From Verrucomicrobiota bacterium (GTDB lineage: Bacteria; Verrucomicrobiota; Verrucomicrobiia; Limisphaerales; UBA11320): 64,000 bases of DNA. Of the stretch, positions 28,841 through 57,478 are shown piece by piece. Position numbers and translations under genes: made by a program. The stretch's first letter is position 1. Each line of letters opens with the position of its first letter. Where the stretch lies: positions 39,482 through 103,481 of the forward strand of contig JACQFQ010000065.1 of the NCBI GenBank assembly GCA_016199985.1, in the 5' to 3' direction. The notes below the pieces were generated by a model that saw only the letters and a program-made list of their open reading frames with translations, was not told the origin of the DNA and searched no databases.

Positions 28841-28869
28841 GGGTGTTCAACCCATCGGCTTGGAGAAAC

Positions 28870-29396: not shown

Positions 29397-29398
29397 AT

Positions 29399-31215: not shown

Positions 31216-31821
31216 ACAATGTGGTGGAAGTCTCATAGAATAATGCGAGCCCAAGGAACCACTCGCCCCTTCTGAACGGAATTGATTCTCGAAACTTAAC
31301 GAGGTCCGCGCGAAATGCGAGACAAGAGTTCGCGTCCGTCACTCCGAAGGTGTGGACGCGCACTTTTGTAGCGCGCTTTTTGTAGCGCAGGTTGCCCAAC
31401 CTGCATCCCGACCGATCCACTCCCTTCGCGGTTTCGCACTCCAACGCGCTGCCGACTGGGCAGTTGGTGGCAGGGCAGGCTTGGCAGCGCTGCTACTGCG
31501 CCACAACTGAACGTGGCTCGAGTCTCACTGAACACCAATATCGCAACGCGACGTCGTTCCCTGTCCGGGATCCAGACAGGTCTGTCCAGCCCCGAATCCC
31601 GATCGAAGCGATGAACGCGGAGTCACCATCGCAAGTGCCTGTGGGAAGACGCAACCCAGGCTGGCTCAAGTCCTGCATGACTTGACCTGCGGACCGCGAC
31701 CTGGAGCGACATCGACTCGACGACTCGACTCGACTCAAGACCCCGGAGGGTCATTCAGCAACGCGCAGCCACCTGAAGCCGACAAGACAAGAGAATCCAC
31801 ACACACAACATCTTCCAAGAC

Positions 31822-32598: not shown

Positions 32599-34866
32599 TC
32601 AGGGCCGATGCAGACCGTTGATCGTGTGATAAAGATCGCCCCGAAATGCGTGGCCGTCCGCCCCAGTGAGATTGTACGAGATCTTCATCTGCATCACGGG
32701 CTGGATTTCCGGCAGCGCTAAAACCACCGATCGTCGGTCCTCGGATAGCTTGGCCGAAACGATTCTCATCGCGTCATGCCCCTCCTGGCTGGGATCCTTC
32801 ACTGAGTAGTCCTTCGATCCGTAACTCGAAGTGTATCGGTAGTTCCACTGCTCCACCGCGTAGCTGCCCGGATCCTCGGCAATCGACGGATCCAAGGGCT
32901 CTGCAAACTTCAGATGAACTCCATCTTGATGGGATGAAAGCCCAATGGGGTCGTAGAACTTCCCGCCCGCGTAACGAACGCGCTGCAAACATCCATCGCG
33001 AGGACCCGCCGTCTGCCATCCTTGCGACCCCACCACGTAAAGCTGTCCGTCCTCCGATCGAAAACTCCCTCGCATCGAGCCCGAGATGAAACGCGCTTTC
33101 AATGGAAGCACGCCTCCCTGGGGATGACCGTCCACAGAGTCGCGGTACACGAGGTACAAAGCGCAACGACCGAACGAAAGACTCAGCAGCTGTCCGCTCA
33201 ACGGCCCCCAACGCTTGGGATCCATCGGCGACCAGACCTGGCTGCCCGTCGAATTGTCCACGCTGTGGGGAATCCAGCACAGCGGCGGCTCATAACCCAG
33301 GGGTTGATCCGGGGTTGCATGAGGTCCCCCGAATCCATAGTACGCGCCCTCCTTCACCTGCGAGATCTGCGAGGACGGGGTCCAGTTGCCCTGCTGGGGC
33401 GAGACAGTGATGGTTCCATCCGGTCCCACCGACATGCCGTTCGGATTCCGCCACCCCGTCGCGAGGGTCTTGATGGATCGTCCGTCGCCCGCGATCCGGT
33501 GCGCGCCGATGGGATCGACGAAGTAAAAGTTCCCCGCGGCGTCCAGCTCAAGGCTCGTCACGTAGTCGTGGCCGCCCAGCGAGGTGTGGATCAGGTTGCT
33601 AAAATTGTCGTACGCGTCCGCCTCGCCGTTGCCGTCCCGATCTCGCAGACGCGTGATCTGGTCGCGGCCCAGCACATAGATCTCGCCATTTCGGACGCGC
33701 AATCCCAGCGGTTGAAAGAGCCCCGTGGCAAACCGCCGCCAAGTCAGCTGTCCGAGTTTCTCCGCGATGCCTCCCACCACCCACACATCGCCGTGCAACG
33801 TGCATACCGCGGCGTCTCCGTTCGGCAGGAAATCGACGCCCGAGGTGAACATCAGCGCGCGCCACGGATTGTCGTAGGGAACGGTCAGTGTATCGACGAC
33901 GTACGGTTGGTTCCCCGCTCCATTCGATCCCTGGGTCGCGATGGCGGGCCAGAGAACGGCGCCCGGCTCGGTCCAGCGAGCCAGCGACTCCGGCGGAGCG
34001 GTCGACCGCAAGAGAGCGGAGAGCTCCGTGGAGCGCGCCGGGGGACCTGACCAGAGAAGCACCTTGATCCGTTCGATCTTCGCGCTGGGAGGAAATGTGA
34101 GAATAACCCGGCCTCGCTTATCGGCCTCGGGGCTCAACAACGCGGGGCCCAGCGCGCCCGCCCACGCCAGGACGGAGTCCGTGCTCAACGTCGCCTCAAG
34201 CAACGAGCCTTCCGATCGCTCCTGAGCGCTCGAAGCGCCCTTCAATTCCAAAACCTCCAGCCGCAAAGGCGTCGAGTGGGGCGCCAGTTCGAAGTTGCGG
34301 ACGACGACGAGCCAGTCGCCCCGATCCTCAATCCACGGCATCTCCGAGATGGCCGTCCCATCGACCGCGTAGGACACCGCGACGCGGTTGCTATGCAATG
34401 TCAGGCCGCGGTACTCCGCCCTCGCCCCGCCCCACGCATTCGAACGAGCGCTCGTGAAAAGGATCGGTCCAGCGGGCGAAGGCTCCCCGATGATGCCGAA
34501 CCGGGCCGTGGCGAAACGAAGAAAGCCGCCCGTCCACGCCACGCGTAAATTCGGCGCCGCCGTGTCGTAGCCCACCGTGGCTTGTCCGCGATCGCCCACA
34601 CGAATCGAGAGGCCCTTGGCGATCGTCCCATTCGGCGCGGGTAGAATGCTCTCCAGGAACGGGCCCACATCCGTCTTCTGCCAACGGCCATCCTCCCAAT
34701 CCTTCTCGGTCTGCTTCGCGGGCTCAAGCGTCGGCGGCGCGGAGGTCGCGCCTTGCGCGGCCGGGTTTCCTGGGACGGCGCAGTGCGCGACGAACAAGGC
34801 CGCCAGGAGGCGGGCCCGGCGAGAACGCAGTTTCAGGGCGGGACGAAAGGGGCGGAAGAAACTCAT
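32599..34866 (-). CDS. Secreted beta-propeller protein (sugar-dehydrogenase/NHL-like), 755 aa
   Basis: The true start is taken as ATG 34866 (MSFFRPFRPALKLRSRRARLLAALFVAHCAVPG signal), 2 nt after the upstream stop. The track's 111-aa N-terminal extension overlaps the upstream gene. Repetitive G-D/W blade-like segments. No CxxCH motif. Confidence 0.7.
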   Translation of the reverse strand: MSFFRPFRPALKLRSRRARLLAALFVAHCAVPGNPAAQGATSAPPTLEPAKQTEKDWEDGRWQKTDVGPFLESILPAPNGTIAKGLSIRVGDRGQATVGYDTAAPNLRVAWTGGFLRFATARFGIIGEPSPAGPILFTSARSNAWGGARAEYRGLTLHSNRVAVSYAVDGTAISEMPWIEDRGDWLVVVRNFELAPHSTPLRLEVLELKGASSAQERSEGSLLEATLSTDSVLAWAGALGPALLSPEADKRGRVILTFPPSAKIERIKVLLWSGPPARSTELSALLRSTAPPESLARWTEPGAVLWPAIATQGSNGAGNQPYVVDTLTVPYDNPWRALMFTSGVDFLPNGDAAVCTLHGDVWVVGGIAEKLGQLTWRRFATGLFQPLGLRVRNGEIYVLGRDQITRLRDRDGNGEADAYDNFSNLIHTSLGGHDYVTSLELDAAGNFYFVDPIGAHRIAGDGRSIKTLATGWRNPNGMSVGPDGTITVSPQQGNWTPSSQISQVKEGAYYGFGGPHATPDQPLGYEPPLCWIPHSVDNSTGSQVWSPMDPKRWGPLSGQLLSLSFGRCALYLVYRDSVDGHPQGGVLPLKARFISGSMRGSFRSEDGQLYVVGSQGWQTAGPRDGCLQRVRYAGGKFYDPIGLSSHQDGVHLKFAEPLDPSIAEDPGSYAVEQWNYRYTSSYGSKDYSVKDPSQEGHDAMRIVSAKLSEDRRSVVLALPEIQPVMQMKISYNLTGADGHAFRGDLYHTINGLHRP

Positions 34867-34868
34867 GT

Positions 34869-37800
34869 TCAAGGCATGATGAAGGTTCCATCCGACGTCG
34901 ACAGTCGCAGGAACTCGGGAAGCTTTCGCGGGTCGAGACGAATGAGAATCTCGTGCGTGCCGGCCGCGACCTCGGCGCTGACGGATCCATCGGCGGCCAA
35001 AGTCGCGGGCTTGCCTCCAATCCAGACCGACGCTCCCGCGGCGCCCTCCGCGCGAAGGTTGATTTTCCCCGCGACGGGCGCCTGCAGCTGCGTCGCGGCG
35101 TAAACGCCGACGATGCCCACATATTTCTGCACGCTCGCCGCCTGCCGCAGCTCCTCTTGCGGAACGCGGCCATCCACCCAGGACCAGGCGCTGATCCAAC
35201 CTGGCGCGCTCAAGGGAGTCGCCACCATGCGCTCGAGCCCGAACTGCTCATCCTGATGCAGCCCCGGACGAAGCTTCCATCCGCGGGCCACAGAACCCTT
35301 CGAGGCGTCGAAGGGGCCGGGCTTGCCGAGCTCCGACAGAAAACGGAAGAGATCCAGCCGTTCCTGCGCCGCGACGCCATCGATCAGTCCCGCCGGCATG
35401 AGCGATCCGCCATTGCGCCGGTTCGCGACGTTGTTCTTCGCCACCGAAAACTCCCCGCCCTGGGTGTCTCGCAGCACGATCTGCTCTCCGCTCTCGCGGA
35501 CGAGCAGGCCGCTGAGATCCTGGCCGTCCTTCGTCTCGATGAGGGTCGAGTGAAACCCTTCCTTCACCTTCCGGTTGGGGAACCACACCGACTCGATCAG
35601 GTAATCCATCGGAGCGCTCGCGCCAATGCTTGTCAGGTCGGGGCCGACTTTCCCGCCCGCGCCGCCGATGCTGTGGCACTGCACGCAACCGAGTTGGGCG
35701 CGGCGATAGATGGATTCGCCTCGACGCGCGTCGCCCTGCGACGCGGCGGTGGTCGCCATGCTCTTCAGCTCGGCGTCGGAGAGCGTCGCCTCGCCTTCGC
35801 TCAGATCGGCGCCGCGAGTCAGCGCGAGCACCAGGTCGGGTTCGTTGCGGCCGCTCTCACGCGCCGCGCGCAACCCCGCCCTGGCGACCGACGCCGGGAT
35901 GCCGCTCTTCGGAAGCTGGCGCGTCAAGGACGCGGCCGCGCCCTTGATGGAGAGCAGGGATCTCCAAAGGCCCAGCGCGTCAGGCTCGCTTGCGATGGTG
36001 GGAAGCGCCTGCACGGCCTGTCGAATGCCAGCGTCCAGCCGCATCGACGCCAAAGCGGGGATCGCTTGCCGCCGCACAACGAGGCTCGATCCGGGCTCGC
36101 ACAGCGGCGTCAGCAGCCGCTCGGCCGCGGCGCCGCCGATCTCGCGGAGCGTTTCGAAAATCGCGCTGCGCAAGTCCTCTGGTGTCGCGGGATCTCCCGC
36201 GATGCCCGCCAACGGCGCGAGCTTCTCGCCCGGGATCTTCCACGCGCCCGCCAAACGAATCGCGGACTTCCGCACATTCAAGTCGGTGTGAGCGAAAAGA
36301 GAGGACACAGCCGCCAGGTCGCCCTCGGGCCGCGCGTTGCGAAGCCTCGCGGCTTCCGCCAGCGCGGTGAGGGCGCGAGCGGCCGCGGTGGCTGAGAAGC
36401 CTCCGTCCCGAACGCGGCCGTACAAATTGGAAAGCTCCGCGGACAATCCGGATTGCCCCGCAAGCTCGATCCAGTTCCCCGACCCTTCCTTGTCGAAAGG
36501 GCGGCGGGCCAGGATCTGTCCGAGAACAGCGCCTGCCTGGGCCGGCTCGAGCGCTTTCAATCCGTACTCCAACTGTTTCTCGCGCCCTTCGATCTTCCAG
36601 TCTCCCGACTTGATCGCCGCGATCCAAGGTTCGGCCAGATCATTGATCGTCAGCCACACGGCGTAATCCAGGTGCTTGTCGAGAGGCCGGTCCAGCGCGG
36701 ACAGCGCCACCTCAGCGGCGCGCGCGCCGGGAAACCGGGGCAGCGCGCGAAGCGCCTCCAACCGGACGCGCGGATGCTCGTCCGCGACAGCCTTCGCGAG
36801 CAATTCCAACGGGCGCTGCTTCTGGCTTGATGTCAGCTGCTCCGGCTTCAGAAAACGCTCCGTGCGCGAGGACAGATCGTGTCCCGGCGCCGCGAGTCGA
36901 TGCCCCCAGAAGGCGAGCACCCGCACCGCGGCGGCGCGAACTCGTCCATCGCTGGCCTGCAGCAGCCTCTCCAGGAGCGGCGTGTTCACCACATCCAGGC
37001 TCTGATGCAGCCAGAGCGCTTCAAGCTGCGCCCGCTCATCGGACGCGTTGGCCATCCATTTCTTCAGCGACGGGGTCACCTCCGTCGCGCCGCGTTCGGC
37101 CAGCACACGCCGGGCTTTCTCACGATGAAACCCCGACGCTCCCGTCAGCATCGCCAGCAATTCCGGAGTCCGCGCTTTCGCGAGGTCCGTCTTCGCGATG
37201 GGCCTATGGTCCTTGTGCGTCACCCGCCAGATCCGTCCGTGCTCCTTGTCGCGCCGAGGATCGCGGAAGTCGACTTCTCCGTGCTGGATGATCGGATTCG
37301 ACCAGTCCGCGATGTAGAGCGCGCCGTCGGGCCCGAGCTTCACGTCGATCGGACGAAAGGTCGCATCCTGGCTTCGAACCAGGTCGGGCATCTCTTGCGT
37401 CACGTAGGCCGACCCTTGTTCGCGGATCGCGAATCGCACGACCCGGTGAGCGCGGAAATCGCACGTGATCATGCTGCCCTGCCAGTCGTCCGGAAACGCG
37501 GGGCTGTGGAGAATCTCAAGGCCGCAGAACTTGGGATACGAGCCCGGGCTGACGCTGCCGAGAATCCGCCGGGCGCCGGCGTACGTAAAATACATGGCTT
37601 GCGGCACGACATAGTTGATCCCTTCGCCGCCGGCTCCGTCGGTCGCAAAGGACTGGCCGTAGAGATCCATTTGATGCCCCCAGCTGTTCACCAGGCCTTT
37701 CATATGAACACCGAGCTCCAGCGTGGACGGCCGCAGGTTCAGGATGCCCCCGCTGTTCAGTCGCTGCACCCCGCTAGGCGTTTCCGCGTGGGTGTGAATA

Positions 37801-39590
37801 TAGATCGACTGGTTCATGTAAAGCTGTCCGTCCATGCCCCAGTGCAATGTGTGGAGGATGTGATGCGTGTCCTCGGTGCCAAATCCGGAGAGCACCGTGC
37901 GCCTCTGGTCGGCGCGTCCGTCGCCGTCCGTGTCCTTGAAATGGAGAAGCTCCGTGCTCTGCCCCACATAGACGCCGCCGTCTCCGGGCTCGACACCGGT
38001 GGGGATCAGCAGCCCGTCCGCGAAAACCCGCGATGTCTCGGCAACCCCGTCTCCATCGCGATCCTCCACCACGATGATCGTGTCGTCCGCGCTTTGCCCG
38101 GGCTTGATCTGTGGATAAACCGACGAGCTCGCGATCCAGAGCCGGCCCTGCGCGTCGAAGTTCATGTGAATGGGCTTATGAAGCAGAGGGTTCTCGGCGT
38201 ACAGGTTCGCCACGAGACCCGGCGCCAGCTCGAAGCTGGGACGCGGCTGGGGCGTTTGTGGCGAGCCTTTGGGCTGCGGCGATGACGGCCGGGGCGCGGG
38301 CTTGAACACATAATCGCGGGGCGCCGGGACGATCTCGCATCGGTGCGCCTTCGGACCTCGAAGCTCGGCGATCATCCGTTCCTGCTCCGCGATCAACGGA
38401 TCGAACTCGGGGATCTCTTTCGCGTTCCTTCCCTGCTCGCCTTTGCGGAAGAGGAACAAATAGGTGCTGTTCTCAGGTCGCCAACGGTGGAAGAAGAGCT
38501 CGTTTTTTTTCACGATCGCGGCCCTCAGCGCCTCGGCCTGACGGCCCCAGGGCCCGCCCGCGACCTCCAGCCCCTTTTCCCACGAGCCCGCCTTCCCTGC
38601 CGCGACATCCTCGCCATCGACTCGAAGGACATGCGCCCCGCTCTTCAGCCCCTCGATGGAGATGGAGATGGAGGCCGAGGGCAGGCCGAGTTGATCCCAC
38701 CGCGCCGTGAATTGAAGGCCGCCCGCCGCCGCCTGGATGTCGGTCGCCTTGCATCCTTCCTGCCGCAACAGCGCGGGACCCGACAGGCTCAGGCGCAGCG
38801 ACGGCGTCCCCGGGATCGCGGGCTGCATCGCCCGGCGAATCGCTTCGCCTGCGATCCGATAGCCGCGCTCGTTCAGATGGATTCCGTTGTCGGTGTAGGC
38901 CGAGGCGGGCCGAGTCTTCGCCCTGGATCGTGGCGCGGGCTCCCCCAGCCCCTGGAAGACACTGAAAAGATCAACGAAGAACGCGTCATGGGCGCGCGCC
39001 AGTCTGGCGAGGGCGGCGGTGTACTTCTGCAGATCGAGATTGTGCGACGAGGGATCGGGCAGAGGCTCGCCAAGGTCCTCGTGGCGGATCGGTCCGAGGA
39101 TCACAAGCCGCGGCGGCGCGTTGGAGTTCAGGCGATGGACCTCGCCGATGAGCCGTTCCATCTGCCGCGTAAAGGACTCGATCCCCGAGGCCCCCGCGAA
39201 CGAGGAGGCCATCCCATAGCCCAAGACGACGACCGTCGGTTTCACGGCGGCGATTTGGCCGATGAGATTGGTGAACCAGTGCTCCTCCCCCTTGGTCCAA
39301 TCAAAGCTCGCGCGGGACTGGCCGGTGGGAAGATCGGCGCTCCAGGCAAGGTTGCGGAAGGAGACGCTGCGTTCGGGAAAGGCGGAGGTCAGCGCCTGCT
39401 CGATCCAGCCCTGCGCGCCCTCGCGCTCCAGCAAGGTGTCTCCGACAAACGCCACGCGATCGCCGTCCCTGAGCTCAAACGCGCGAGGCTCGGCTGCCTG
39501 CGCAAACGACGCCAGAGAAGCGGCAAGAATGGGCATGAAGCCGCCGAGACGAAAACGGAACGAGAGCGAACGCGCTATGCCGGAAGCCAT
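34869..39590 (-). CDS. SGNH/GDSL-hydrolase domain fused to a PVC-type membrane-bound-dehydrogenase / HEAT-repeat / cytochrome c (CxxCH) heme-binding protein
   Basis: The start is chosen at ATG 39590 (MASGIARSLSFRFRLGGFMPILAASLASFAQA signal). N-terminal VAFVGDTLLE...VVVLGYGMASS SGNH pattern. Central propeller-like region (DGDGVAE, DTDGDGRAD). HEAT-like helical repeats. Heme motif GCVQCHSIGGAGGKVGPDL at nt 35673-35687. Confidence 0.85.
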   Translation of the reverse strand: MASGIARSLSFRFRLGGFMPILAASLASFAQAAEPRAFELRDGDRVAFVGDTLLEREGAQGWIEQALTSAFPERSVSFRNLAWSADLPTGQSRASFDWTKGEEHWFTNLIGQIAAVKPTVVVLGYGMASSFAGASGIESFTRQMERLIGEVHRLNSNAPPRLVILGPIRHEDLGEPLPDPSSHNLDLQKYTAALARLARAHDAFFVDLFSVFQGLGEPAPRSRAKTRPASAYTDNGIHLNERGYRIAGEAIRRAMQPAIPGTPSLRLSLSGPALLRQEGCKATDIQAAAGGLQFTARWDQLGLPSASISISIEGLKSGAHVLRVDGEDVAAGKAGSWEKGLEVAGGPWGRQAEALRAAIVKKNELFFHRWRPENSTYLFLFRKGEQGRNAKEIPEFDPLIAEQERMIAELRGPKAHRCEIVPAPRDYVFKPAPRPSSPQPKGSPQTPQPRPSFELAPGLVANLYAENPLLHKPIHMNFDAQGRLWIASSSVYPQIKPGQSADDTIIVVEDRDGDGVAETSRVFADGLLIPTGVEPGDGGVYVGQSTELLHFKDTDGDGRADQRRTVLSGFGTEDTHHILHTLHWGMDGQLYMNQSIYIHTHAETPSGVQRLNSGGILNLRPSTLELGVHMKGLVNSWGHQMDLYGQSFATDGAGGEGINYVVPQAMYFTYAGARRILGSVSPGSYPKFCGLEILHSPAFPDDWQGSMITCDFRAHRVVRFAIREQGSAYVTQEMPDLVRSQDATFRPIDVKLGPDGALYIADWSNPIIQHGEVDFRDPRRDKEHGRIWRVTHKDHRPIAKTDLAKARTPELLAMLTGASGFHREKARRVLAERGATEVTPSLKKWMANASDERAQLEALWLHQSLDVVNTPLLERLLQASDGRVRAAAVRVLAFWGHRLAAPGHDLSSRTERFLKPEQLTSSQKQRPLELLAKAVADEHPRVRLEALRALPRFPGARAAEVALSALDRPLDKHLDYAVWLTINDLAEPWIAAIKSGDWKIEGREKQLEYGLKALEPAQAGAVLGQILARRPFDKEGSGNWIELAGQSGLSAELSNLYGRVRDGGFSATAAARALTALAEAARLRNARPEGDLAAVSSLFAHTDLNVRKSAIRLAGAWKIPGEKLAPLAGIAGDPATPEDLRSAIFETLREIGGAAAERLLTPLCEPGSSLVVRRQAIPALASMRLDAGIRQAVQALPTIASEPDALGLWRSLLSIKGAAASLTRQLPKSGIPASVARAGLRAARESGRNEPDLVLALTRGADLSEGEATLSDAELKSMATTAASQGDARRGESIYRRAQLGCVQCHSIGGAGGKVGPDLTSIGASAPMDYLIESVWFPNRKVKEGFHSTLIETKDGQDLSGLLVRESGEQIVLRDTQGGEFSVAKNNVANRRNGGSLMPAGLIDGVAAQERLDLFRFLSELGKPGPFDASKGSVARGWKLRPGLHQDEQFGLERMVATPLSAPGWISAWSWVDGRVPQEELRQAASVQKYVGIVGVYAATQLQAPVAGKINLRAEGAAGASVWIGGKPATLAADGSVSAEVAAGTHEILIRLDPRKLPEFLRLSTSDGTFIMP

Positions 39591-39789
39591 CCGGCGCCAA
39601 CGAGGCGGAAACGAGTCAAAGCCGTGCATGATGAACAATGTTGAAAAGGCCCACAGTTTCGACGGTCTTACGCTACGCGCCCATCCCGGCGCAAGCACGC
39701 AACAACACGCGGACGGCGGAAGCCCAACGCTTCGCGCCACGCGCATGAACCGCTATCGGCGCCGAGCCGTCGAGTTCGGACGCGAACCC

Positions 39790-46949: not shown

Positions 46950-48404
46950 ATGATCCGAATCCTCGGCAAACCGAAGCGAACCTGCGCGGGCTGGAGCAGG
47001 AGGGACATGCTGCAGATCGGCGGTCTCTCCCTCCTGGGCATGCATCTGCCCGGCCTCCTTGAGGCCGAGTCGGCGCCCCCGGCCGCGCCGCGCCGCAGCC
47101 AGGCGAAATCCATCATCCTGCTCTACCTGTTCGGGGGCCCCGCGGTTCAGGAAACATTCGATCCCAAGACCGACGCGCCGCGCGAATACCGCGGCGAATT
47201 CGGAAGCATCCCCACCTCGCTGCCCGGCGTTCATTTCTGCGAACACCTCCCGCGAATGGCGAAATGGATGGATCGGTCCACATTGATTCGATCGTTCACG
47301 CACGAATCGAACGATCACAGCGCGGGGCTCCTCCATACGATGACCGGCATGGCGCCCGAGCGGCTGGAGTCGCTGGTTCCGATTCTCGCCAGCCAGGCGC
47401 CGGGCATGAACGCGGTGATCGAGTATCTGGCGCGGCGGGAGAAGCGCTCCCTTCCCGCCTCGGTGTGGATGCCCTGCTATCCCGGGTGGGGCCAGCAGAT
47501 CACGCGGCCCGGGCCCTTCGGCGGCTTTCTCGGACGCCGTTACGACCCGCTCTTCACGAGCTGCGAGATCACGCAAAAGTACGAGCCGAAGAATTTTTAC
47601 GACACGCGGATGGAGCCGATCGGAAAGCTCACCGTTCCCGCCACCGAGCTGATCCCCGAGATCACTCTGGACCGTTTTCACGAACGGCAATCGCTGTCCG
47701 AGCAGCTCGCGACCCGAGTGGACCAGATCGGCCGCAGCGACGAGTTTGATCGCCTGGAGCACTATCAGAAGAAGGCCTTCGAGGTTCTCGCCAACCCCGG
47801 CGCCGGGCGCGGCGCGTGGAACGCGTTCAACCTCGACGACGAGCCCGCCCGGCTCAGGGATCGCTACGGCCGCCACCTGTACGGGGAGGCGGCGCTGACG
47901 GCAAGGCGGCTGGTGGAGCGCGGGGCGCGGTTTGTGACCGTCGCCTGGGAATCGTTTGAGAAACAAGGCAGCGAGCCCACCGCATGGGACACCCACGAGC
48001 GGCATTTTCCGATCATGAAGGATTTCCATCTGCCGACGCTCGACCAGTCCTACTCCGCGCTGTGCGAAGACTTGGAATCCCGAGGCATGCTGGATGAGAC
48101 GCTGGTGGTCGTGATGGGGGAGATGGGTCGCGCCCCGAAGGTCAACGCCGCGGGCGGACGCGATCACTGGTCGTATCTGGGGAACGTCCTGTTGACGGGC
48201 GCGGGAGTGAACAAGGGACTGGTGTATGGAGCGTCGGACGACAAAGGCTTCGGTCCCACATCGCACCCCGTAACACCGGGGGACTTGATCTCGACGCTCT
48301 ACGCGGCGATGGGGATCGACCCCAACGGCTTCATCCATGATTTCGGAGGACGGCCCCGGCCCATCGTGCCCGAAGGCTCGCCGCTGAAAGCGGTGCTCCT
48401 TTAA
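46950..48404 (+). CDS. DUF1501 domain protein (sulfatase-like, Tat signal)
   Basis: Tat-like SRRDMLQIGGLSLLG. LLYLFGGPAVQETFDPK...HESNDHSAG...GEMGRAPKVN..GGRDHW: family-typical blocks. Confidence 0.88.
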   Translation: MIRILGKPKRTCAGWSRRDMLQIGGLSLLGMHLPGLLEAESAPPAAPRRSQAKSIILLYLFGGPAVQETFDPKTDAPREYRGEFGSIPTSLPGVHFCEHLPRMAKWMDRSTLIRSFTHESNDHSAGLLHTMTGMAPERLESLVPILASQAPGMNAVIEYLARREKRSLPASVWMPCYPGWGQQITRPGPFGGFLGRRYDPLFTSCEITQKYEPKNFYDTRMEPIGKLTVPATELIPEITLDRFHERQSLSEQLATRVDQIGRSDEFDRLEHYQKKAFEVLANPGAGRGAWNAFNLDDEPARLRDRYGRHLYGEAALTARRLVERGARFVTVAWESFEKQGSEPTAWDTHERHFPIMKDFHLPTLDQSYSALCEDLESRGMLDETLVVVMGEMGRAPKVNAAGGRDHWSYLGNVLLTGAGVNKGLVYGASDDKGFGPTSHPVTPGDLISTLYAAMGIDPNGFIHDFGGRPRPIVPEGSPLKAVLL

Positions 48405-48445: not shown

Positions 48446-51400
48446 TCAGAGCGCCTGGAGGAGCCCCGCGCCCCAGGTGAAGCCTCCTCCGAACGCGCAC
48501 ATTCCAATCCGATCGCCTTGCTGAAAGCGGTCGGCGGCGTCGGAGAGGCAGAGGGGGATCGAGCTCGACGAAGTGTTCCCGTTGCGGGCGATGTTCGAGA
48601 TCACACGGTCTCCGAGAGATCCCAGCCGGGTCCGCATGGCTTCAAGAATCCGGCCGTTCGCCTGATGAGGGACGATGTGCGCCAGGTCGCCCATGTTGAG
48701 TTCGGCCTGTTCGCATGCGCAGGTCAGGGAATGCATCATGGACCGCACGGCCTCGCTGAAAACCTCCCGTCCGCGCATGGAGACGAATCCGCTGCCGGGA
48801 TTGGGAACGGAGAGCGCCTCGGCTTCGTCAGGCTTGGAGAACAACACCGGGCGTCGCGCGAGAAAGCCCCCAGCCCCCTCCGCGGCGTCGCCGCCCACCA
48901 CCGTCGCGGTGGCCGCGTCGCCGAACAGGATCGCGGTGTCGAAGTCGCGGGGATCGACAACGCGCGACATCTCCTCGGTGGTGACGACCAACACCCGCGA
49001 CCCGGGTTTCGCGAGCACGGCGTCATACCCCACTTGCAAGCAGTAGAGAAACCCGGAGCAGGCCGCGTGGACATCGTAGGCGGCAAGCGCGGTGTGGGGG
49101 TCGCCCGAGGAGAGCGCGGCGTGGATCTGCGACGCCATCGCGGGCGTGACAGAGAGCGGCGTGGTGGTGTGGCAGATGATGGCGTCGAGGTCGGAGAGCT
49201 GAAGCCGGCAGTCGGACAAAGCGCGGGCCGCGGCGGCGACCGCGAGCGTCAGGGCGTTCTCGGTTCCAGCCACGCGACGCCGCGACTCGATGCCGCACAG
49301 CCGGAAGATCTCGTCGGCGCCGCGTCCGGCGAATCGCTCGGCCAGCAGCGCGTTGCTCACCGAGAGCGATCCGGTCACGGCGGACGGCCGGGAGATCCAA
49401 ACCTGATCGGCGGGCCGGGAATCCGCGGCCTGAACTCGCGGCCGCGAGCCCGGGCGCCTGCCGGCGCGCCGGCTCAAGCGGGGCTGGCGCTCGACCGGGC
49501 CGCGGTGAAGCGCCTTCGTTCCGACGACGACCTCTGGCGCGATGCGGGCCACAGGCGTCCCGACCGGCATTTTCTCCGAGACAGGGACCAGCAGTTCCAC
49601 CACCGCGCCATCCACGGGCGAGGCGAGCTCGGTGATCGCCTTATCGCTCTCCAACTCCGCCAGAACGTCGCCGCGACGCACCGATTGCCCGGGCTCGACG
49701 CGCCACTCCACGACCATTGTCTCCTGGTCGGTGGGGCTCGCGCCACGGGCTCGAACCACCACGGTTTCGTCCGACTCAGAGAGCGGACTCGACCACGTCA
49801 CATCGATCTCGAGCAACTCGGCCGCCGCCGTCAGGACGGACTCGAACGAAGGCAGCACCTCGGACTGATTGCTGAATTCGAAGGGCACGAAGGTGTCGGC
49901 GCGGGTGACGCGCCGGACCTGGATGTCGCCGCTCACCGACTCGGCCACGGAGGCGAGGACCTCCGCGGCAAAGCCCGCGGTCAGGTTCTCCTCGTGCACG
50001 ACGATCAGCCGGCGCGTTTTTTCCACCGAGCGAATCACGGCGGCGCGATCCCACGGAGAGACGGAGCAGAGGTCGATGAGATCAGCGGTCAGCCCCAGCG
50101 ATTGCAGGGCGCGGGCGACGCGGCCGCAAATGCCCACCGCGTTGCCCCAGCCGACCAGCGTGAGGTTCTCCCCCGACAGCGTCTGCCGGGCGACTCCGAG
50201 CGCGGCGGATTCGCGCAGCGCGGACTCCGGCGCGAGCTGGTCGCGGGTGTGAAGAAGCGCCTTGGGATAGAAGAACAGGGTCGGACGGCCGGAATCGAAC
50301 GCCGCGTTCAGCAGGCGCGCGGCGTCCGCGGCGTTGCTGGGGATGAGGACGTCCAGTCCCGGCACATGGGCGGCGAGCGTCTCGAAACTTTGCGCGTGGA
50401 ACGGGCCGAGGCCGGGGCGATAACCTCCCGACGGCGCCATCAGGATCATGGGACATTCCCATCCCCCCGCGGTGCGCCAGTACATGGTGGCCATCTCCGA
50501 GATCACCTGGTTCAGGGCGATCGGAAGAAAATCGGAGAACTGCAGCATGGCGACGGGACGATCGCCGGCGAGAGCGCGCCCGACGCTGACGCCCACGATT
50601 GTTGATTCGCTCAGCGGCGCGTTGCGGACGCGTCCCGCGAAGTCTGTCGACAAGCCGCGCGTGACGCCGAAGACGTCGCCCTTGGGATCCTCGATGTCCT
50701 GCCCCAGCAGGCAAACGCGCGCGTCCTCGGCCAGTCGGCGCTCCAGCACTCCGCGGATCGCCTCGGTCATCGTGAGCGTTCCCGCCGCGGAGGCGTCGAC
50801 TCCGAGCAACTGGTTGTGACGGCTTGGGGAGGGCGGGGAGGAAAAGTGGCCCGGACGATCGACGGACAGCCGGTTGGCGGCCGCCCCGGAAGCGGGAAGC
50901 GGGCGCTTGGCATCGAAGACCGCCTTGGGGGATGGGCTCCGACGAGCCGCCTCCACCGCGGCGCGCACCTCGTCGGCGAGCTTCAACTCCAAAGCCTGGA
51001 GCGCCTCTGAGGACACGCCCCACTCGCGGAGTTGGGAGGACAGGTGAGCGAGCGGATCGCCCGTCTTGCGCGCTTCGGCGCGCTCGGTTTCAGAACGATA
51101 GACGCGCTCGTCGTCGGCGTTGGTGTGATCGGATAGTCTCTCGACTTGAAACAGGGCCAGGACGGGACGGGATGTCTTGCGGACAGACTCGACGAGAGCC
51201 TCGACCTTGACCGCGCAAAGGGCGGGATTCCTTCCATCCAGGCGATGAAGAGGCAGGCCGTAGAATTCCTCGGCGTCGCCGTCGGGTCGGGAAAAGAAGG
51301 TGCGTCCGGCGGTCCGCGTGGAAATGCTGAACTGGTTGTCGGCGATCCAGAAAACCACCGGCAGGTCGTCCCGCACCGCCTCGGCGATGGCCTCGAGGAC

Positions 51401-51895
51401 CTCGCCCTGCTGCGTGCTGCCGTCGCCGAGAGAGCAGATCACCACGTCGCCTTTCCCGCGTTCCTTGAGGGCGGCGGCGATACCCGCGGCCTGAAGGGCC
51501 TGATTCCCCACCGGGCCCACGATGGAGAGGATCCGACGGGGAGGGTCGCTGAGGTGCGCCGACATCTGGCGTCCATGCGAATGGGAAGCGACGGTGCCGA
51601 GGAGACTGTGGAAGAATTGGGCGATAGGCGTGCCACGCGCGACCATGAGCGCTTTGTCACGGTAATGCAGATGGAGGTAGTCTCCCGGGCGGAGGAACTC
51701 GGCGAGCAGGGCCGAACCCTCGTGTCCCGCTCCGGAAACGTGGAAGGACGCCTCTCCTTGCGCGATCAACGAAGCCTCGTGCTGATCGATCAGGCGCGCG
51801 GTCAGCATCGCGCGATGGACCCGGAGCCAGAAAGCCGTGTCGACGGGCGCCGAAAGCCGCGGGTTGGCGTCCGAGGATGAAATGGGATTGGCCAT
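48446..51895 (-). CDS. Fusion protein: 2-oxoacid dehydrogenase E1 alpha + E1 beta + lipoyl-attachment domain + FabH-type beta-ketoacyl synthase III (1149 aa)
   Basis: A single uninterrupted ORF with ATG at 51895. See the four domain features below for motifs. No E2 catalytic (DHRxxDG-type) segment is readable. Confidence 0.9.
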   Translation of the reverse strand: MANPISSSDANPRLSAPVDTAFWLRVHRAMLTARLIDQHEASLIAQGEASFHVSGAGHEGSALLAEFLRPGDYLHLHYRDKALMVARGTPIAQFFHSLLGTVASHSHGRQMSAHLSDPPRRILSIVGPVGNQALQAAGIAAALKERGKGDVVICSLGDGSTQQGEVLEAIAEAVRDDLPVVFWIADNQFSISTRTAGRTFFSRPDGDAEEFYGLPLHRLDGRNPALCAVKVEALVESVRKTSRPVLALFQVERLSDHTNADDERVYRSETERAEARKTGDPLAHLSSQLREWGVSSEALQALELKLADEVRAAVEAARRSPSPKAVFDAKRPLPASGAAANRLSVDRPGHFSSPPSPSRHNQLLGVDASAAGTLTMTEAIRGVLERRLAEDARVCLLGQDIEDPKGDVFGVTRGLSTDFAGRVRNAPLSESTIVGVSVGRALAGDRPVAMLQFSDFLPIALNQVISEMATMYWRTAGGWECPMILMAPSGGYRPGLGPFHAQSFETLAAHVPGLDVLIPSNAADAARLLNAAFDSGRPTLFFYPKALLHTRDQLAPESALRESAALGVARQTLSGENLTLVGWGNAVGICGRVARALQSLGLTADLIDLCSVSPWDRAAVIRSVEKTRRLIVVHEENLTAGFAAEVLASVAESVSGDIQVRRVTRADTFVPFEFSNQSEVLPSFESVLTAAAELLEIDVTWSSPLSESDETVVVRARGASPTDQETMVVEWRVEPGQSVRRGDVLAELESDKAITELASPVDGAVVELLVPVSEKMPVGTPVARIAPEVVVGTKALHRGPVERQPRLSRRAGRRPGSRPRVQAADSRPADQVWISRPSAVTGSLSVSNALLAERFAGRGADEIFRLCGIESRRRVAGTENALTLAVAAAARALSDCRLQLSDLDAIICHTTTPLSVTPAMASQIHAALSSGDPHTALAAYDVHAACSGFLYCLQVGYDAVLAKPGSRVLVVTTEEMSRVVDPRDFDTAILFGDAATATVVGGDAAEGAGGFLARRPVLFSKPDEAEALSVPNPGSGFVSMRGREVFSEAVRSMMHSLTCACEQAELNMGDLAHIVPHQANGRILEAMRTRLGSLGDRVISNIARNGNTSSSSIPLCLSDAADRFQQGDRIGMCAFGGGFTWGAGLLQAL
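48449..49402 (-). other. FabH-type KAS III domain (aa ~832-1149)
   Basis: Intact Cys-His-Asn triad: DVHAACSGF (Cys946, nt 49058-49060), IVPHQANGRI (His1077), ARNGNTSSSSIP (Asn1107). C-terminal GGGFTWGA. Confidence 0.85.
49538..49765 (-). other. Lipoyl/biotinyl attachment domain (aa ~711-786)
   Basis: VVEWRVEPGQSVRRGDVLAELESDKAITELASPVDGAVVELLV. The target Lys752 codon (AAG) is at 49640-49642. Confidence 0.8.
49805..50782 (-). other. E1 beta-like (transketolase pyrimidine-binding + C-terminal) region (aa ~372-697)
   Basis: LTMTEAIRGVLERRL..., GQDIEDPKGDVFGVTRGL, RVRNAPLSESTIVGVSVG, GPFHAQSFE, LIDLCSVSPWD. Confidence 0.8.
50906..51853 (-). other. E1 alpha-like TPP-binding region (aa ~15-330)
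   Basis: FHVSGAGHEG..., VVICSLGDGSTQQGEVLEAIAEAVRDDLPVVFWIADNQFSIST (GDG-x(n)-N TPP motif), SDHTNADDERVYR. Confidence 0.8.
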
Positions 51896-52227
51896 GAATG
51901 CGCGAGCGATCCGTGAAACCCGACGATCAGGCCGCTGAGCGAGGAACGAGATTGTGACGCTCTCCGTCCCGGCTCAACGACAAGATCGATGTTTGGCTCT
52001 GCATGACAGTGGCGGAGTATCGAGGCTGGTTCGGTTTCGTCAAGCGCCGGCGCAAGCTTGATTCTTCCGACCCGCTCCTTGTCAAAACGCCGCTGACGCT
52101 CCTCCTCCTCATCGTGATCCCAATCGCGGCCCGATCTCGGGCGCCCGGACAGGGTGAGGATGACGGTTCAGAGCAGGATCAGGATCGCGAGTGGGAACAG
52201 GATCCGTGCGAGACGCCCGCAATCCGA

Positions 52228-52776
52228 TCACTTCGCCGCCAACGCCTCTTCGATCGCCTTCGTCACCTGGGGATCATCGGGCGTTGTGGTGGGCTCGAAG
52301 CGCTTGAGGATCTCGCCGTTCTTCCCGATGAGAAACTTGCCGAAATTCCACTTGATGTCTCCAGGGAACGGAGAGTCTTTACCCACGAGAGCGGCGTAAA
52401 GCGGATGCTGCTGAGCGCCCTTCACGTGCAGCTTGTCGAAGAGCGGGAAGGAGACGTCATACTTCGCGGAACAGAACTGGCGAATCTCCTCATTGGTTCC
52501 AGGCTCCTGGGCTCCGAAGTCATTGCAGGGAAACCCGAGAACGGTGAACCCTTTGGCCTTGTACTGCCGGTGTACTTTTTCGAGAGCCTTGTACTGCGGA
52601 GTCAGGCCGCACTGGGAGGCGACGTTGACCACCAGGAGAACCTTGCCCTTGTAGGCTTTCAGGCTGGTGTCCTTATGATCGAGCGTCTTCAAAGGCACGT
52701 CGTGAACGTTGGGCCCCGCGAAGGCGACAGTCACGAGGAGCGTGAGCAGGATGGAGATCATCGGTAGGAATTTCAT
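52228..52776 (-). CDS. Glutathione peroxidase (Cys-type), with signal peptide
   Basis: ATG 52776 gives MKFLPMISILLTLLVTVAFA. GKVLLVVNVASQCGLT, LGFPCNDFGAQEPG, WNFGKFLI are the three GPx signature blocks. The track's N-terminal extension (to 52902) runs into folC. Confidence 0.9.
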   Translation of the reverse strand: MKFLPMISILLTLLVTVAFAGPNVHDVPLKTLDHKDTSLKAYKGKVLLVVNVASQCGLTPQYKALEKVHRQYKAKGFTVLGFPCNDFGAQEPGTNEEIRQFCSAKYDVSFPLFDKLHVKGAQQHPLYAALVGKDSPFPGDIKWNFGKFLIGKNGEILKRFEPTTTPDDPQVTKAIEEALAAK

Positions 52777-52844
52777 GGCCCGAAGTATTCCAACACAGCC
52801 TGGATTGTCAATGATCCTCGATTTCCCAACTCCGCGCCCACGAT

Positions 52845-54122
52845 TCATCGCAAGCGCCACTCGTTTAGCCCGCGCTCGCCGGGGCGGGCGTCGGCCGTCC
52901 AACCCATCTCCTCGTAAACTTGCCCCACGAGGTACAGCGATCCTGTGATCACCTTGACGCCCTCCGGCGCCGGATCGAGCAGCGCCCTCCGGACGTTCGG
53001 ATAATCCTCAACGGCGATCGACGTTTTCAAACCGCGACAGTGGGCGCTCAGTTCGTCGCAGGTCACGGAACGTTCGCTCTGCACCGAGACCGCGCGCACC
53101 CGGCTGGCGAGAGGCAACAACGCCGCGAGCATCGCGGTCCAGTCCTTGTCCTTCAGAACACCGATCACCAGGCAAATGGATTGCCCCGGGAACACTTCGC
53201 TCAGCGTTTCGGCGAGAACCCGAGCGCCCTCGAGGTTGTGCGCGCCGTCGATCGCCCAGGTTTCCCCGTCTCCGCGGATGACATCGAAACGCCCCGCCCA
53301 GCGGGTCTCGCGCAGGCCAGTGACAATCGCCTCCTCACTGACGGGGATGCGATCGCGCAAGCCGCGCGCCGTCGCCTCCGCCAGAGCGGCGTTGCGGACC
53401 TGATGGGCCCCGGCCAGCCTCAACTCCCCCCAGCGCCGTCGTCGGTTCTCCGCAGCGTCCGCCCCCACCTCGACGATCGCCGCGCGATTCTCAAGCGCCC
53501 TGGATCGAATCACCGCCAGCGCGTCGGGATGATCGACCGCCGTGAAAACCGGGACGCCGGGCTTGATGATGCCCGCCTTCTCAGCCGCGATTTCCCGATG
53601 CGTGTTGCCGAGCCATTGCTGGTGTTCGAGTCCGATGTTCGTGATGACGCTCGCGATCGGCGTGACAATGTTCGTGGCGTCGAGGCGCCCGCCCAGACCG
53701 GTTTCCCAAATGACGAGATCGCAGGCGGTCTTCTTGAAGTGGATCAGCGCCATCGCGGCGCAGAACTCGAAGAAGGTGAGCGGATCCTCCGGCGGGAGCG
53801 CGTCGCAGGCGCGATGCGCCTCCTCGTAGAGCGAGATGGTTTCGGCTTCAGAGATCGCGACGCGTTGAACCTGGATGCGCTCCCCGACATGAACCAAGTG
53901 AGGGGATGTGAAGAGTCCCACACGAAGCCCGGACTGCCGGTAAATGCTTTCCAGGAAAGCGCAAACGCTTCCTTTCCCGTTCGTGCCAGCGACGTGGATG
54001 AATCGGAGATGATCGTGGGGCGATCCCAGGCGCTCTGAAACAACCCGCATTTTATCCAAGCCCATCCGCATCCCGAAGGATCCGAGCGCTTGCAACTTCT
54101 CGATGACTTCAGGGTAGGTCAT
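52845..54122 (-). CDS. folC: Bifunctional folylpolyglutamate synthase / dihydrofolate synthase
   Basis: IHVAGTNGKGSV (P-loop), TSPHL, ...EVGLGGRLDATN-like WETGLGGRLDATN. Confidence 0.92.
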   Translation of the reverse strand: MTYPEVIEKLQALGSFGMRMGLDKMRVVSERLGSPHDHLRFIHVAGTNGKGSVCAFLESIYRQSGLRVGLFTSPHLVHVGERIQVQRVAISEAETISLYEEAHRACDALPPEDPLTFFEFCAAMALIHFKKTACDLVIWETGLGGRLDATNIVTPIASVITNIGLEHQQWLGNTHREIAAEKAGIIKPGVPVFTAVDHPDALAVIRSRALENRAAIVEVGADAAENRRRRWGELRLAGAHQVRNAALAEATARGLRDRIPVSEEAIVTGLRETRWAGRFDVIRGDGETWAIDGAHNLEGARVLAETLSEVFPGQSICLVIGVLKDKDWTAMLAALLPLASRVRAVSVQSERSVTCDELSAHCRGLKTSIAVEDYPNVRRALLDPAPEGVKVITGSLYLVGQVYEEMGWTADARPGERGLNEWRLR

Positions 54123-56191: not shown

Positions 56192-57478
56192 ATGCGCAGT
56201 CGGGCGTTGTTCATTGGATTCGTCGTGCTGAACGCGGCATTCGCGGCCGCGCTGGTTTATTTTGTCATGCGCTCGGGCAGCAGCCCCTCGACCCCGTCGA
56301 TCCCCGGGACGCTGACCGCTTTCCAAACCTCGCCGCCTCCCCCGACCGTCACGGCGCCCCCCTCGACGCAGCCACGATCCAACCCGGTGCCCACGCTCCC
56401 CCCCACCAACGGCGTAGCGCAGAATCCTGCCGGCACGGAGACCCGCCCACCCGCGACGCCGCTGGCCGCCGGGAAGCAATTCGGCTGGAAGGACGTGGAA
56501 TCGAGCAATTACCTCTCTTATCTCAAGAACATCCGCGAGGTGGGCTGTCCCGAGAAGATGGTGAGGCAAATCATCTTCAACGACGGGAACGATCTGTTTA
56601 ACCAGCGCCGGCTCGAAGCCGCGATCACGCACGATTTCAAGTGGTGGCAGCCGGACACCCAATACTCGGCGGGCGGATACAATCCGGAATACCAATCACG
56701 CATGCAGACCCTTGTTCTGGATCGGCGCGAACTGCTGACGCGGCTGCTCGGGGAGAACTGGGAGCAGGAGGACAAGGCGCCTTCCATCGCCACCCACACT
56801 GTGGCGCTTACCGGGCCGGTCCTCGGCGCGCTGCCCCTGGACATCTACATGGGCGTCCAAGAGATCTGCACACGATCCATGTCGCGCCATCAGGACTACA
56901 TGATGGGACGGTTCAACGAAGGCCTCCCCACCAGCCAGGTCGAGCTCGCGCGGCTGCGGGACCAGACGCGGAAGGAGCTGTCGGTGATCCTGGACCGGGA
57001 TCAGCTCGAGGAATTCCTGCTCCGCTTCTCGCACAACGCCAGCAAGCTGCGGCAGGATCTGCGGGGCCTGGGGATCAGCAGCGACGAGTTTAGGCTCATC
57101 TTCCGGGCCACCGACCAGATTGATCACCAGATCCAATTGGAATACGGCGGCGAGGAGGCGCTGAGCCCGAAGCAGCGCGAGCAGATGACGCGGCAGCGCG
57201 AGCAGGCGGTGCAGAACGTCCTGGGCAAGGACCGATACTCCAGGCTCATCCTGAGCCGCGACCCGCTCTACCGGCAGGCGCAGATGATGGTCATGCAATC
57301 CGGCGCCGACGACGCCCTCACCCCTGAGCTCTACGAGATCCTCAGGTCCGCCCAGGCGCGACGCCAGCAAGTCCAGGGGGATCGCCAGATGAGCGCGGAG
57401 GAAAAGCAGAACGCCCTTATCGCCATCAACCAGGAGCAGCTGCAAAAGCAGAGGAAACTGCTCCAGCGAGGCAACTGA
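56192..57478 (+). CDS. Membrane-anchored hypothetical protein (N-terminal TM, Pro/Thr-rich linker, helical C-terminal domain)
   Basis: GGAGG lies 5 nt upstream of the ATG. Anchor FIGFVVLNAAFAAALVYFV, then the linker SPPPPTVTAPPSTQPRSNPVPTLPPT. No recognisable catalytic motif. Confidence 0.6.
   Translation: MRSRALFIGFVVLNAAFAAALVYFVMRSGSSPSTPSIPGTLTAFQTSPPPPTVTAPPSTQPRSNPVPTLPPTNGVAQNPAGTETRPPATPLAAGKQFGWKDVESSNYLSYLKNIREVGCPEKMVRQIIFNDGNDLFNQRRLEAAITHDFKWWQPDTQYSAGGYNPEYQSRMQTLVLDRRELLTRLLGENWEQEDKAPSIATHTVALTGPVLGALPLDIYMGVQEICTRSMSRHQDYMMGRFNEGLPTSQVELARLRDQTRKELSVILDRDQLEEFLLRFSHNASKLRQDLRGLGISSDEFRLIFRATDQIDHQIQLEYGGEEALSPKQREQMTRQREQAVQNVLGKDRYSRLILSRDPLYRQAQMMVMQSGADDALTPELYEILRSAQARRQQVQGDRQMSAEEKQNALIAINQEQLQKQRKLLQRGN

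Follow-up and report, generated by a model that had tools for sequence, protein, structure and literature searches.

What chemistry is carried out by a protein in which a 2-oxoacid dehydrogenase E1 component, a lipoyl domain and a condensing enzyme are joined in one chain? The question is raised by one gene in a 64,000-nucleotide stretch of DNA from a Verrucomicrobiota bacterium (contig JACQFQ010000065.1), which is referred to below as the window and was analysed over its whole 64 kb. The gene, located at 48446-51895 on the (-) strand, encodes E1 alpha, E1 beta, a lipoyl domain and a FabH-type beta-ketoacyl-acyl carrier protein synthase III (KAS III). We propose that it would serve as a self-contained acyl-chain starter module, i.e., a 2-oxoacid dehydrogenase with its E2 core swapped for a FabH-type condensing enzyme. 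The acyl group would probably pass from a 2-oxoacid to the lipoyl arm and from there to the KAS III cysteine, followed by condensation with malonyl-acyl carrier protein (ACP), and the E3 component would act in trans.

Domain architecture of the fusion protein

The open reading frame (ORF) consists of 1149 codons and a stop, without any interruption. Its codon-position GC content is typical of a real gene, with a third-position GC (GC3) of 0.83 in a window of 64% GC. The original prediction, made from the sequence alone, described a single ORF with E1 alpha, E1 beta, lipoyl and KAS III regions in this order. A Pfam scan of the 1149-aa protein bore this out, giving E1_dh, Transket_pyr, Transketolase_C, Biotin_lipoyl, ACP_syn_III and ACP_syn_III_C from the N- to the C-terminus, and the positions quoted for K752, C946, H1077 and N1107 were all correct. 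The features of the gene are listed below, with thiamine pyrophosphate abbreviated as TPP.

48446..51895 (-): whole E1alpha-E1beta-lipoyl-KAS III fusion gene, a single ORF with six Pfam domains
50924..51814 (-): E1 alpha (TPP/PP-binding) region, residues 28-324 (Pfam E1_dh at residues 28-324, E 1.9e-42; match to 1um9_A), with the landmarks Y78-R79-D80 and the G108-R-Q-M motif
51335-51427 (-): TPP-Mg motif G157-D-G...N187 of E1 alpha
51125-51127 (-): catalytic H257 of E1 alpha
50777..50923 (-): alpha-beta connector, residues 325-373, of low conservation and with predicted disorder at 343-363
49793..50776 (-): E1 beta region (Pyr and C-terminal domain), residues 374-701 (Pfam Transket_pyr at residues 374-548, E 4e-25; Transketolase_C at residues 569-676, E 7.5e-23; match to 1um9_B)
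50606-50608 (-): TPP-activating E430 of E1 beta
50396-50398 (-): catalytic H500 of E1 beta
49535..49762 (-): lipoyl domain, residues about 712-787 (Pfam Biotin_lipoyl at residues 723-785, E 1e-14)
49640-49642 (-): lipoyl-lysine K752 in the motif E-S-D-K-A, a predicted modification site
49406..49534 (-): Arg/Pro-rich linker, residues 788-830
49466-49498 (-): linker motif P800...P805-x-L-x-R-R, residues 800-810
48449..49405 (-): KAS III (FabH-type) domain, residues 831-1149 (Pfam ACP_syn_III at residues 940-1007, E 5e-19; ACP_syn_III_C at residues 1061-1147, E 4e-26)
49058-49060, 48665-48667 and 48575-48577 (-): KAS III triad residues C946, H1077 and N1107, respectively
48650-48652 (-): putative ACP-docking R1082, equivalent to Escherichia coli R249
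49310-49312 (-): E862, equivalent to E. coli W32
48941-48943 (-): F985, equivalent to E. coli R151

No match to 2-oxoacid_dh, the Pfam model of the E2 catalytic core, was obtained in the protein even at an E-value of 0.1, and a motif search of it for DHR and H[RK]xxDG was negative, in agreement with the earlier claim that the ORF carries no E2 core. Nor was a 2-oxoacid_dh domain found in the window or in 83 related loci.

The AlphaFold2 model of the fusion had a mean predicted local distance difference test score (pLDDT) of 90.5, a predicted template modelling score (pTM) of 0.74, and only three flexible segments. The pLDDT fell below 50 at residues 343-363. The lipoyl domain was predicted as all-beta with pLDDT of 83-97, and in the linker residues 804-809 formed a beta-strand (pLDDT about 86) and residues 815-826 were disordered. 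In Foldseek comparisons, the E1 beta part gave a template modelling (TM) score of 0.93 normalised to 1um9_B and the KAS III domain a TM score of about 0.9 to FabH structures, and no single chain among the solved structures spanned the whole architecture. The architecture joins two known kinds of protein, a 2-oxoacid dehydrogenase scaffold and a KAS III.

The fusion is a widespread and genuine gene family

A protein identical to the fusion is deposited at NCBI (HYR88_02260), from a Verrucomicrobia metagenome-assembled genome (MAG). The best 120 database matches, i.e., the identical protein and 119 further ones, showed 47-85% identity at 96-100% coverage and contained all six domains. They came from Planctomycetota (Lignipirellula cremea, Gemmataceae, Pirellulales, Phycisphaeraceae and Rubripirellula), Verrucomicrobiales and Kiritimatiellae, and their names were automatic only ("2-oxoisovalerate dehydrogenase E1 component", "beta-ketoacyl-ACP synthase 3", "TPP-dependent enzyme" or "hypothetical protein"). 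When one genome per species was scanned, at least 581 species-representative genomes encoded a relative, and the best 80 loci all matched at full or nearly full length. The relatives among these genomes belonged mostly to Planctomycetota, Verrucomicrobiota, Kiritimatiellia and Lentisphaerae; the scan added Lentisphaerales, Limisphaerales and about 20 MAGs labelled Spirochaetaceae or Spirochaetales. The architecture search thus revealed a large family centred on the Planctomycetota-Verrucomicrobiota-Chlamydiota (PVC) superphylum, not a one-off.

Many full-length copies were seen in MAGs labelled Spirochaetaceae, Spirochaetales or Spirochaetota, and single copies in MAGs labelled Nitrospirales, Bdellovibrionales, Chromatiaceae, Xenococcus, Beijerinckiaceae and Limnocylindria. 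The loci with Spirochaetes or other non-PVC labels were L010, L016, L019, L020, L022, L027, L028, L036, L048, L051, L056, L063, L072, L076, L077, L079 and L083. These labels reflect either a distribution wider than the PVC group or mislabelled bins.

Because the window DNA comes from a MAG, and one relative (L087, described below) has three separate genes, it was considered whether separate E1, lipoyl-protein and fabH genes had been joined artificially by misassembly or a frameshift. This explanation was rejected, and we regard its chance as minute. The same uninterrupted fusion recurs in independent assemblies with constant junction spacing, including the complete chromosomes CP036433 (Lignipirellula cremea), OZ247499 and OZ260084. 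The concern over a frameshift or assembly error, which had been voiced at the outset, was removed by the identical NCBI protein, the 119 further homologues and the at least 581 genomes and not by read mapping; since the fusion recurs in independent genomes, resequencing was unnecessary. Hence, the fusion is genuine, monocistronic and ancient.

No conserved flanking genes were found. All-against-all clustering of the flanking ORFs of the 83 loci gave no family present in more than 12 loci, and three contexts inspected by hand showed no conserved neighbourhood. No second FabH or ACP was detected within 6-10 kb of the fusion, as tblastn with E. coli FabH and ACP matched the fusion alone. In full-text literature searches, no paper describing or assaying the fusion was found, consistent with the original prediction, whose author was not aware of a characterised enzyme with such a layout. 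In papers on the lipids of verrucomicrobia, Akkermansia and anammox bacteria, either the classical route of branched-chain 2-oxoacid dehydrogenase (BCKDH) and FabH is taken for granted or canonical FabH alone is listed. The architecture is already in public databases under automatic names, and the hand-off step is what would be mechanistically new.

Conservation of the E1 and lipoyl modules

Residue conservation was scored on an alignment of 193 non-identical full-length fusion sequences. Eleven residues were invariant in 193/193: Y78, R79, G157, N187, H257, E430, H500, K752, C946, H1077 and N1107. D158 of the TPP-Mg motif was present in 188 of the sequences, and the motif agrees with the pattern GDG-X(26-28)-N of heterotetramer-type E1 enzymes. 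Since the catalytic residues of all three modules are invariant, none of the modules appears to be a relic. The conservation indicates that the E1, lipoyl and KAS III modules are under strict purifying selection and suggests that all are functional.

Over their full extent, the E1 parts align with the branched-chain E1 of Thermus thermophilus and the pyruvate dehydrogenase (PDH) E1 of Geobacillus. The best match of E1 alpha in the PDB was 1um9_A, the T. thermophilus branched-chain E1 alpha (E 1e-36), with the GRQM motif in common, and E1 beta aligned with 1um9_B at full length (E 1e-50). In the alignments with 1um9 and 1w85, H257, H500 and E430 match the equivalent residues, and the title of PDB entry 1ols states the role of His-alpha/His-beta' in reductive acylation. 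The shared GRQM motif may hint at a branched-chain substrate. The closest NCBIfam models for the E1 part were PDH E1 models, with scores far under their cutoffs. Unlike in heterotetramer-type E1 enzymes with separate subunits, the alpha and beta parts lie on one chain in the fusion.

In the lipoyl domain, K752 is flanked as D/T/S-K-A/S in the 193 sequences. The reading of the Biotin_lipoyl domain as a biotinyl carrier was rejected, because M-K-M was never seen in them. The spacing from P682 to K752 is 70 aa in 172/193, so that the connection between E1 beta and the lipoyl domain is of fixed length. The linker between the lipoyl domain and KAS III is variable apart from a P-x-L-x-R-R motif, with P805 conserved in 181, L807 in 139, R809 in 133 and R/K810 in 161 of the 193. 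A peripheral subunit-binding domain (PSBD) was not detected in the linker of the window protein, which gave no E3_binding match. A regular-expression match to a PSBD in the fused proteins was rejected, as it was the normal C-terminal helix of E1 beta. The P-x-L-x-R-R motif could be a PSBD remnant or a tether.

The KAS III domain has lost the residues that bind the adenine of coenzyme A

The KAS III domain is 32-37% identical to FabH and matched 2ebd in the PDB with an E-value of 1e-45. It scored 247.6 bits with the NCBIfam model NF006829 (PRK09352; cutoff 249) and 210.6 bits with TIGR00747 (cutoff 292). The sequence of 1HN9, which is identical to E. coli FabH, was used as the reference. In the complex of E. 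coli FabH with coenzyme A (CoA), the adenine is stacked between Trp32 and Arg151 and hydrogen-bonded to Thr28, and the pantetheine is contacted by Arg36, Asn210 and Asn247 (PMC4606726). The window protein has R858, E862 and F985 at the positions of T28, W32 and R151, respectively. Across the 193 fusions the W32 position is D/E and never W, the commonest residues at the R151 position are F/L/P/Y instead of R, and the T28 position is R/M/K in the family. The pantetheine-tunnel residues N247, G209, M207 and F213 and the oxyanion residues are retained. The equivalent of R249 (R1082), which we take to be the ACP-docking arginine of E. coli FabH, is retained in 181/193, and the equivalent of Lys257 is Arg.

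As a control, the KAS III domain was searched against 1.84 billion cluster representatives, which gave about 57 stand-alone FabHs of 300-345 aa. W32 and R151 were both kept in 49 of these, usually together with T28 and R36. In a neighbour-joining tree all 49 lay on one side of a split, with 54 of 55 lipoyl-linked domains on the other. A change of F87 to T/S was tried as a marker of primer-pocket specificity and rejected, since this position varies among canonical FabH representatives too. Because T28, W32 and R151 are replaced and the triad, the tunnel and R249 are kept, the domain reads as a condensing enzyme without a hold on the CoA nucleotide. By its residue pattern, it looks like an enzyme that still accepts malonyl-ACP and no longer grips the nucleotide end of acyl-CoA.

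The loss of these residues bears on the possibility that the fusion merely co-localises the classical route, in which a separate E2 core makes acyl-CoA and KAS III uses it. Such a route would be compatible with the ability of isolated lipoyl domains to work in trans with E2 cores and with the presence of further 2-oxoacid dehydrogenase complexes in PVC genomes, and our inventory of the source genome covers the 64-kb window only. However, a KAS III without T28, W32 and R151 is poorly matched to an acyl-CoA donor, no E2 core gene lies beside the fusion at the 83 loci, and the split form described in the next section fuses its lipoyl domain and PSBD to KAS III and not to an E2 core. We therefore consider the classical route quite improbable for this protein.

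Split and extended relatives

Several rare relatives have a different gene layout. At L085 6875-10302 (Logan SRR25758331, 38% GC), an E1alpha-beta gene overlaps by ATGA with a gene for a lipoyl-linker-KAS III protein, P0176; an alpha/beta hydrolase gene follows this two-gene unit. The N-terminus of P0176 is E2-like (MNLTVPQLGEG...ETDKS). Its linker had no PDB matches other than the PSBD of Geobacillus E2p; the alignments span all 43-45 residues, and their E-values (0.08-1.3) are weak owing to the short segment. The same PSBD-like segment is carried by P0275, and it was found only in these two split relatives. By its domain order, P0176 appears to be an E2 layout (lipoyl-PSBD-X) with the core replaced by KAS III.

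Relatives of 770-850 aa consist of E1beta-lipoyl-KAS III, with E1 alpha separate. P0161 (L084 10001-15829, GCA_029777335.1), with 1942 aa, contains the fusion followed by a polyketide synthase (PKS)-type ketoreductase (KR) and a PP-binding ACP, and ends in a C-terminal tail of about 250 aa without any domain match. The gene of P0199 (L086 633-3288), an E1beta-lipoyl-KAS III protein, has a small ACP gene immediately behind it. P0195 (L088 105-2341) is a KAS III that stands alone and is encoded on a short contig; its gene is directly followed by an ACP gene, and also by an S-adenosylmethionine (SAM) methyltransferase gene. Both ACP genes encode 83-86 aa. P0199 and P0195 are members of a separate PHQGS subclade with changed equivalents of N247 and R249. 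Since a KR and an ACP occur in cis, or an ACP gene adjoins, in these relatives, the clade would work on ACP-bound chemistry. The rare relatives thus appear to tie the lipoyl domain to KAS III, and KAS III to ACP-bound 3-keto chemistry.

In one further relative (L087 3531-6951, ENA ERZ25039470), E1alpha-beta, a 212-aa lipoyl protein and a 316-aa KAS III are encoded by three adjacent or overlapping genes. This layout may be real, with three genes, or may have arisen through indel errors in a long-read contig.

The exact placement of KAS III where the E2 core belongs in P0176 would also fit a domain that acts as an acyltransferase only. Such a surrogate E2 core would pass the acyl group from the lipoyl arm to CoA or holo-ACP without condensation, so that the protein would be a compact 2-oxoacid dehydrogenase with acyl-CoA or acyl-ACP as its product. 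In FabH, the acyl exchange between a thiol and Cys112, which is the first half-reaction, is reversible, and several KAS III-like proteins are acyltransferases. However, malonyl decarboxylation and condensation are the only steps that require H1077 and N1107, and the invariance of these two residues across the family would be hard to reconcile with transfer alone. The loss of the adenine-binding residues disfavours CoA as the acceptor, and the KR right behind KAS III in P0161 implies a 3-keto product. An acyltransferase without condensing activity is thus unlikely in our judgement. The original prediction had offered direct acyl delivery by the lipoyl arm to the cysteine of KAS III as one alternative, and this was supported by the comparison as a whole: the triad and R249 are kept, the adenine-binding residues are lost, a split form with a PSBD exists, and relatives carry a KR or an ACP.

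Proposed mechanism

The mechanism proposed here starts from the observed architecture, conservation and residue patterns, from which we infer the chemistry of all steps as well as the substrate and where the product goes. E1 alpha-beta with TPP would decarboxylate a 2-oxoacid, probably a branched-chain or other short aliphatic one; pyruvate and 2-oxobutyrate may also be used. The lipoyl group on K752 would then be reductively acylated by E1. The acyl-dihydrolipoyl-lysine arm would enter the pantetheine tunnel of KAS III instead of acyl-CoA and transfer the acyl group to C946. Malonyl-ACP would dock at the conserved Arg patch, and decarboxylation and condensation by H1077/N1107 would yield a 3-ketoacyl-ACP for type II elongation. 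Finally, the dihydrolipoyl arm would be re-oxidised by a free dihydrolipoamide dehydrogenase (E3) encoded elsewhere. The glycine-cleavage H protein is oxidised by E3 without a PSBD, and the last step is assumed by analogy with it. The net reaction would be 2-oxoacid + malonyl-ACP + NAD+ to 3-ketoacyl-ACP + 2 CO2 + NADH, with no CoA thioester intermediate.

Several observations weigh against this mechanism. No E3, lipoate ligase or fatty-acid synthesis gene is linked to the fusion at any of the 83 loci, and its partner enzymes are therefore assumed. Two deep-branching fusions keep W32. From the loss of the adenine residues it follows that CoA binding is altered or absent, which does not in itself prove lipoyl-lysine to be the donor. 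Canonical FabH with T28, W32 and R151 occurs in the PVC group, in an rpmF-plsX-fabH locus of Opitutaceae and as a solitary gene of Zavarzinella (loci L090 320-2685 and L089 8001-9020, respectively), so that fatty-acid initiation as such does not require the fusion. Mainly straight-chain fatty acids are reported for many planctomycetes, which fits poorly with a purely branched-chain role. Canonical FabH is common in Gemmatales (Zavarzinella formosa, Telmatocola sphagniphila, Gemmata and Fimbriiglobus), and one Gemmataceae MAG carries the fusion. The fusion is probably an additional starter enzyme and not necessarily the sole one.

The coexistence of canonical FabH at the level of PVC lineages would also suit a fusion whose chemistry is as proposed and whose product goes to a specialised lipid or polyketide rather than to bulk membrane fatty acids. 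Some relatives have KR-ACP in cis, or a dedicated ACP and a methyltransferase adjoining, as in secondary-metabolite loci. However, no ACP, KR or tailoring gene is linked to the fusion, either in the window or at the 83 closest loci, the ACP-linked relatives P0199 and P0195 sit in the separate PHQGS subclade, and the presence of the gene in hundreds of species amid housekeeping genes suits a core function. A specialised product therefore seems rather unlikely, although it deserves some weight.

Taken together, we propose that the lipoyl-lysine arm, and not CoA, is the acyl donor to a FabH-type enzyme here, so that acyl chains would be started from 2-oxoacids independently of CoA through the exchange of an E2 core for KAS III. 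Planctomycetota, Verrucomicrobiota, Kiritimatiellia and Lentisphaerae, and apparently some Spirochaetes, would start chains in this way, which may be the main route to branched- or odd-chain lipids in them. For this broader proposal, we judge the odds to be about even. If true, the cysteine of a condensing enzyme would join E2 cores and the T protein of glycine cleavage as a third kind of acceptor for the lipoyl swinging arm, and type II fatty-acid synthesis would have a new entry without acyl-CoA. It would explain how much of the PVC superphylum, whose members abound in soil, water and guts, makes lipid starters from keto acids that derive from amino acids. Hundreds of automatic annotations would be corrected, and a compact single-polypeptide part would become available for engineering branched- and odd-chain fatty acids from 2-oxoacids. 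The split lipoyl-PSBD-KAS III form would be a clear case of catalytic-domain replacement within a multienzyme-complex scaffold.

Genomic surroundings in the window

The coordinates confirmed that the gene is isolated, with a 332-nt upstream spacer and a convergent downstream neighbour, as first described. The downstream neighbour is a DUF1501 gene (46950-48404, +), and the spacer extends to a glutathione peroxidase gene (52228-52902, -). Further upstream are a Mur-ligase-family gene and a porin gene, all unrelated to the fusion. One weak promoter candidate was found in the spacer:

52016..52043 (-): sigma-70-like promoter match by consensus scan (9/12), one site versus 0.3 expected, weak evidence

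More distant genes include MlaD, PIN-TRAM, FAD oxidase, ThuA, MFS, CTP synthase, KdsB, alanine racemase, PNPase and CorA, among others. No known RNA or riboswitch (Rfam) and no tRNA was found anywhere in the window. Genes for an E2 core, E3, FabD/F/G, other fatty-acid synthesis enzymes or a free ACP were absent among the annotated window ORFs, and tblastn with E. coli ACP gave no match in the window. The earlier claim that no E2, E3 or ACP gene lies in the 64 kb thus held for free genes but not for carrier domains, which occur inside an ORF resembling a non-ribosomal peptide synthetase (NRPS) at 629-6007 (-). This ORF, of 1792 aa, contains Condensation, AMP-binding and PP-binding domains with two carrier stretches, and its first ~700 aa have no Pfam match. 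An Sfp-type 4'-phosphopantetheinyl transferase gene (18942-19727, +) lies 13 kb away. Both are unrelated to the fusion.

Other observations were made elsewhere in the window. The GC content drops from about 0.65 to 0.56-0.59 at 24000-32000, a region that includes PNPase (26702-28840, -), and no ORF passed the codon-GC filter in the segments 24720-26700 and 28840-31822. Two large ORFs, 32599-35199 (-) and 34869-39746 (-), overlap by about 330 nt as listed, and the start of the downstream ORF 32599-35199 is probably mis-assigned because of this overlap. One of the pair has 866 aa with DUF6797, and the other 1625 aa with a GDSL lipase, DUF7133 and HEAT repeats. ORFs 20908-21342, 31822-32469 and 56192-57478 had no Pfam match.

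Comparison with known systems

The fusion shares E1 chemistry and residues, a lipoyl arm and a FabH-type condensing enzyme with Cys/His/Asn with the system of branched-chain 2-oxoacid dehydrogenase and FabH. It differs in having no E2 core or PSBD and in carrying all parts on one chain, and since its KAS III is without the CoA adenine residues, no free acyl-CoA intermediate would be expected. Compared with E2 dihydrolipoyl acyltransferases, P0176 has the N-terminal lipoyl domain, the PSBD-like segment and the translational coupling to the E1 gene in common, whereas a KAS III of the thiolase fold takes the place of the C-terminal 2-oxoacid_dh core (DHRxxDG). Where the PSBD would be, the window protein has only the short P-x-L-x-R-R motif.

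With FabH/KAS III enzymes (E. coli 1HN9, Aquifex 2EBD and Staphylococcus aureus 1ZOW), the fusion domain has the triad, the oxyanion and tunnel residues and Arg249 in common. Unlike them, it is located behind E1 and the lipoyl domain, has T28/W32/R151 replaced, and forms a separate clade in the neighbour-joining tree. In contrast to the canonical FabH of Opitutaceae in its rpmF-plsX-fabH locus, the fusion lies outside any such locus.

A hand-off from thiamine diphosphate (ThDP) to lipoyl to ACP without CoA is known from QncN/QncL/QncM (PMC6335953). In this glycolicacyl-ACP system of tetrahydroisoquinoline biosynthesis, as in SclQ1-4 of scleric acid, the lipoyl domain is behind an E1 beta-like Pyr domain and transketolase-C (PMC6335953), and the fusion has the same domain order as far as the lipoyl domain. 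The Qnc system belongs to a secondary-metabolite cluster with a dedicated ACP, whereas no ACP gene lies near the window fusion and an adjacent ACP was found only in the L086 and L088 relatives. The Qnc donor is a ketose phosphate, whereas that of the fusion is proposed to be a 2-oxoacid. Finally, QncL ends in an E2-type acyltransferase that loads the ACP, whereas the fusion ends in a decarboxylative condensing enzyme.

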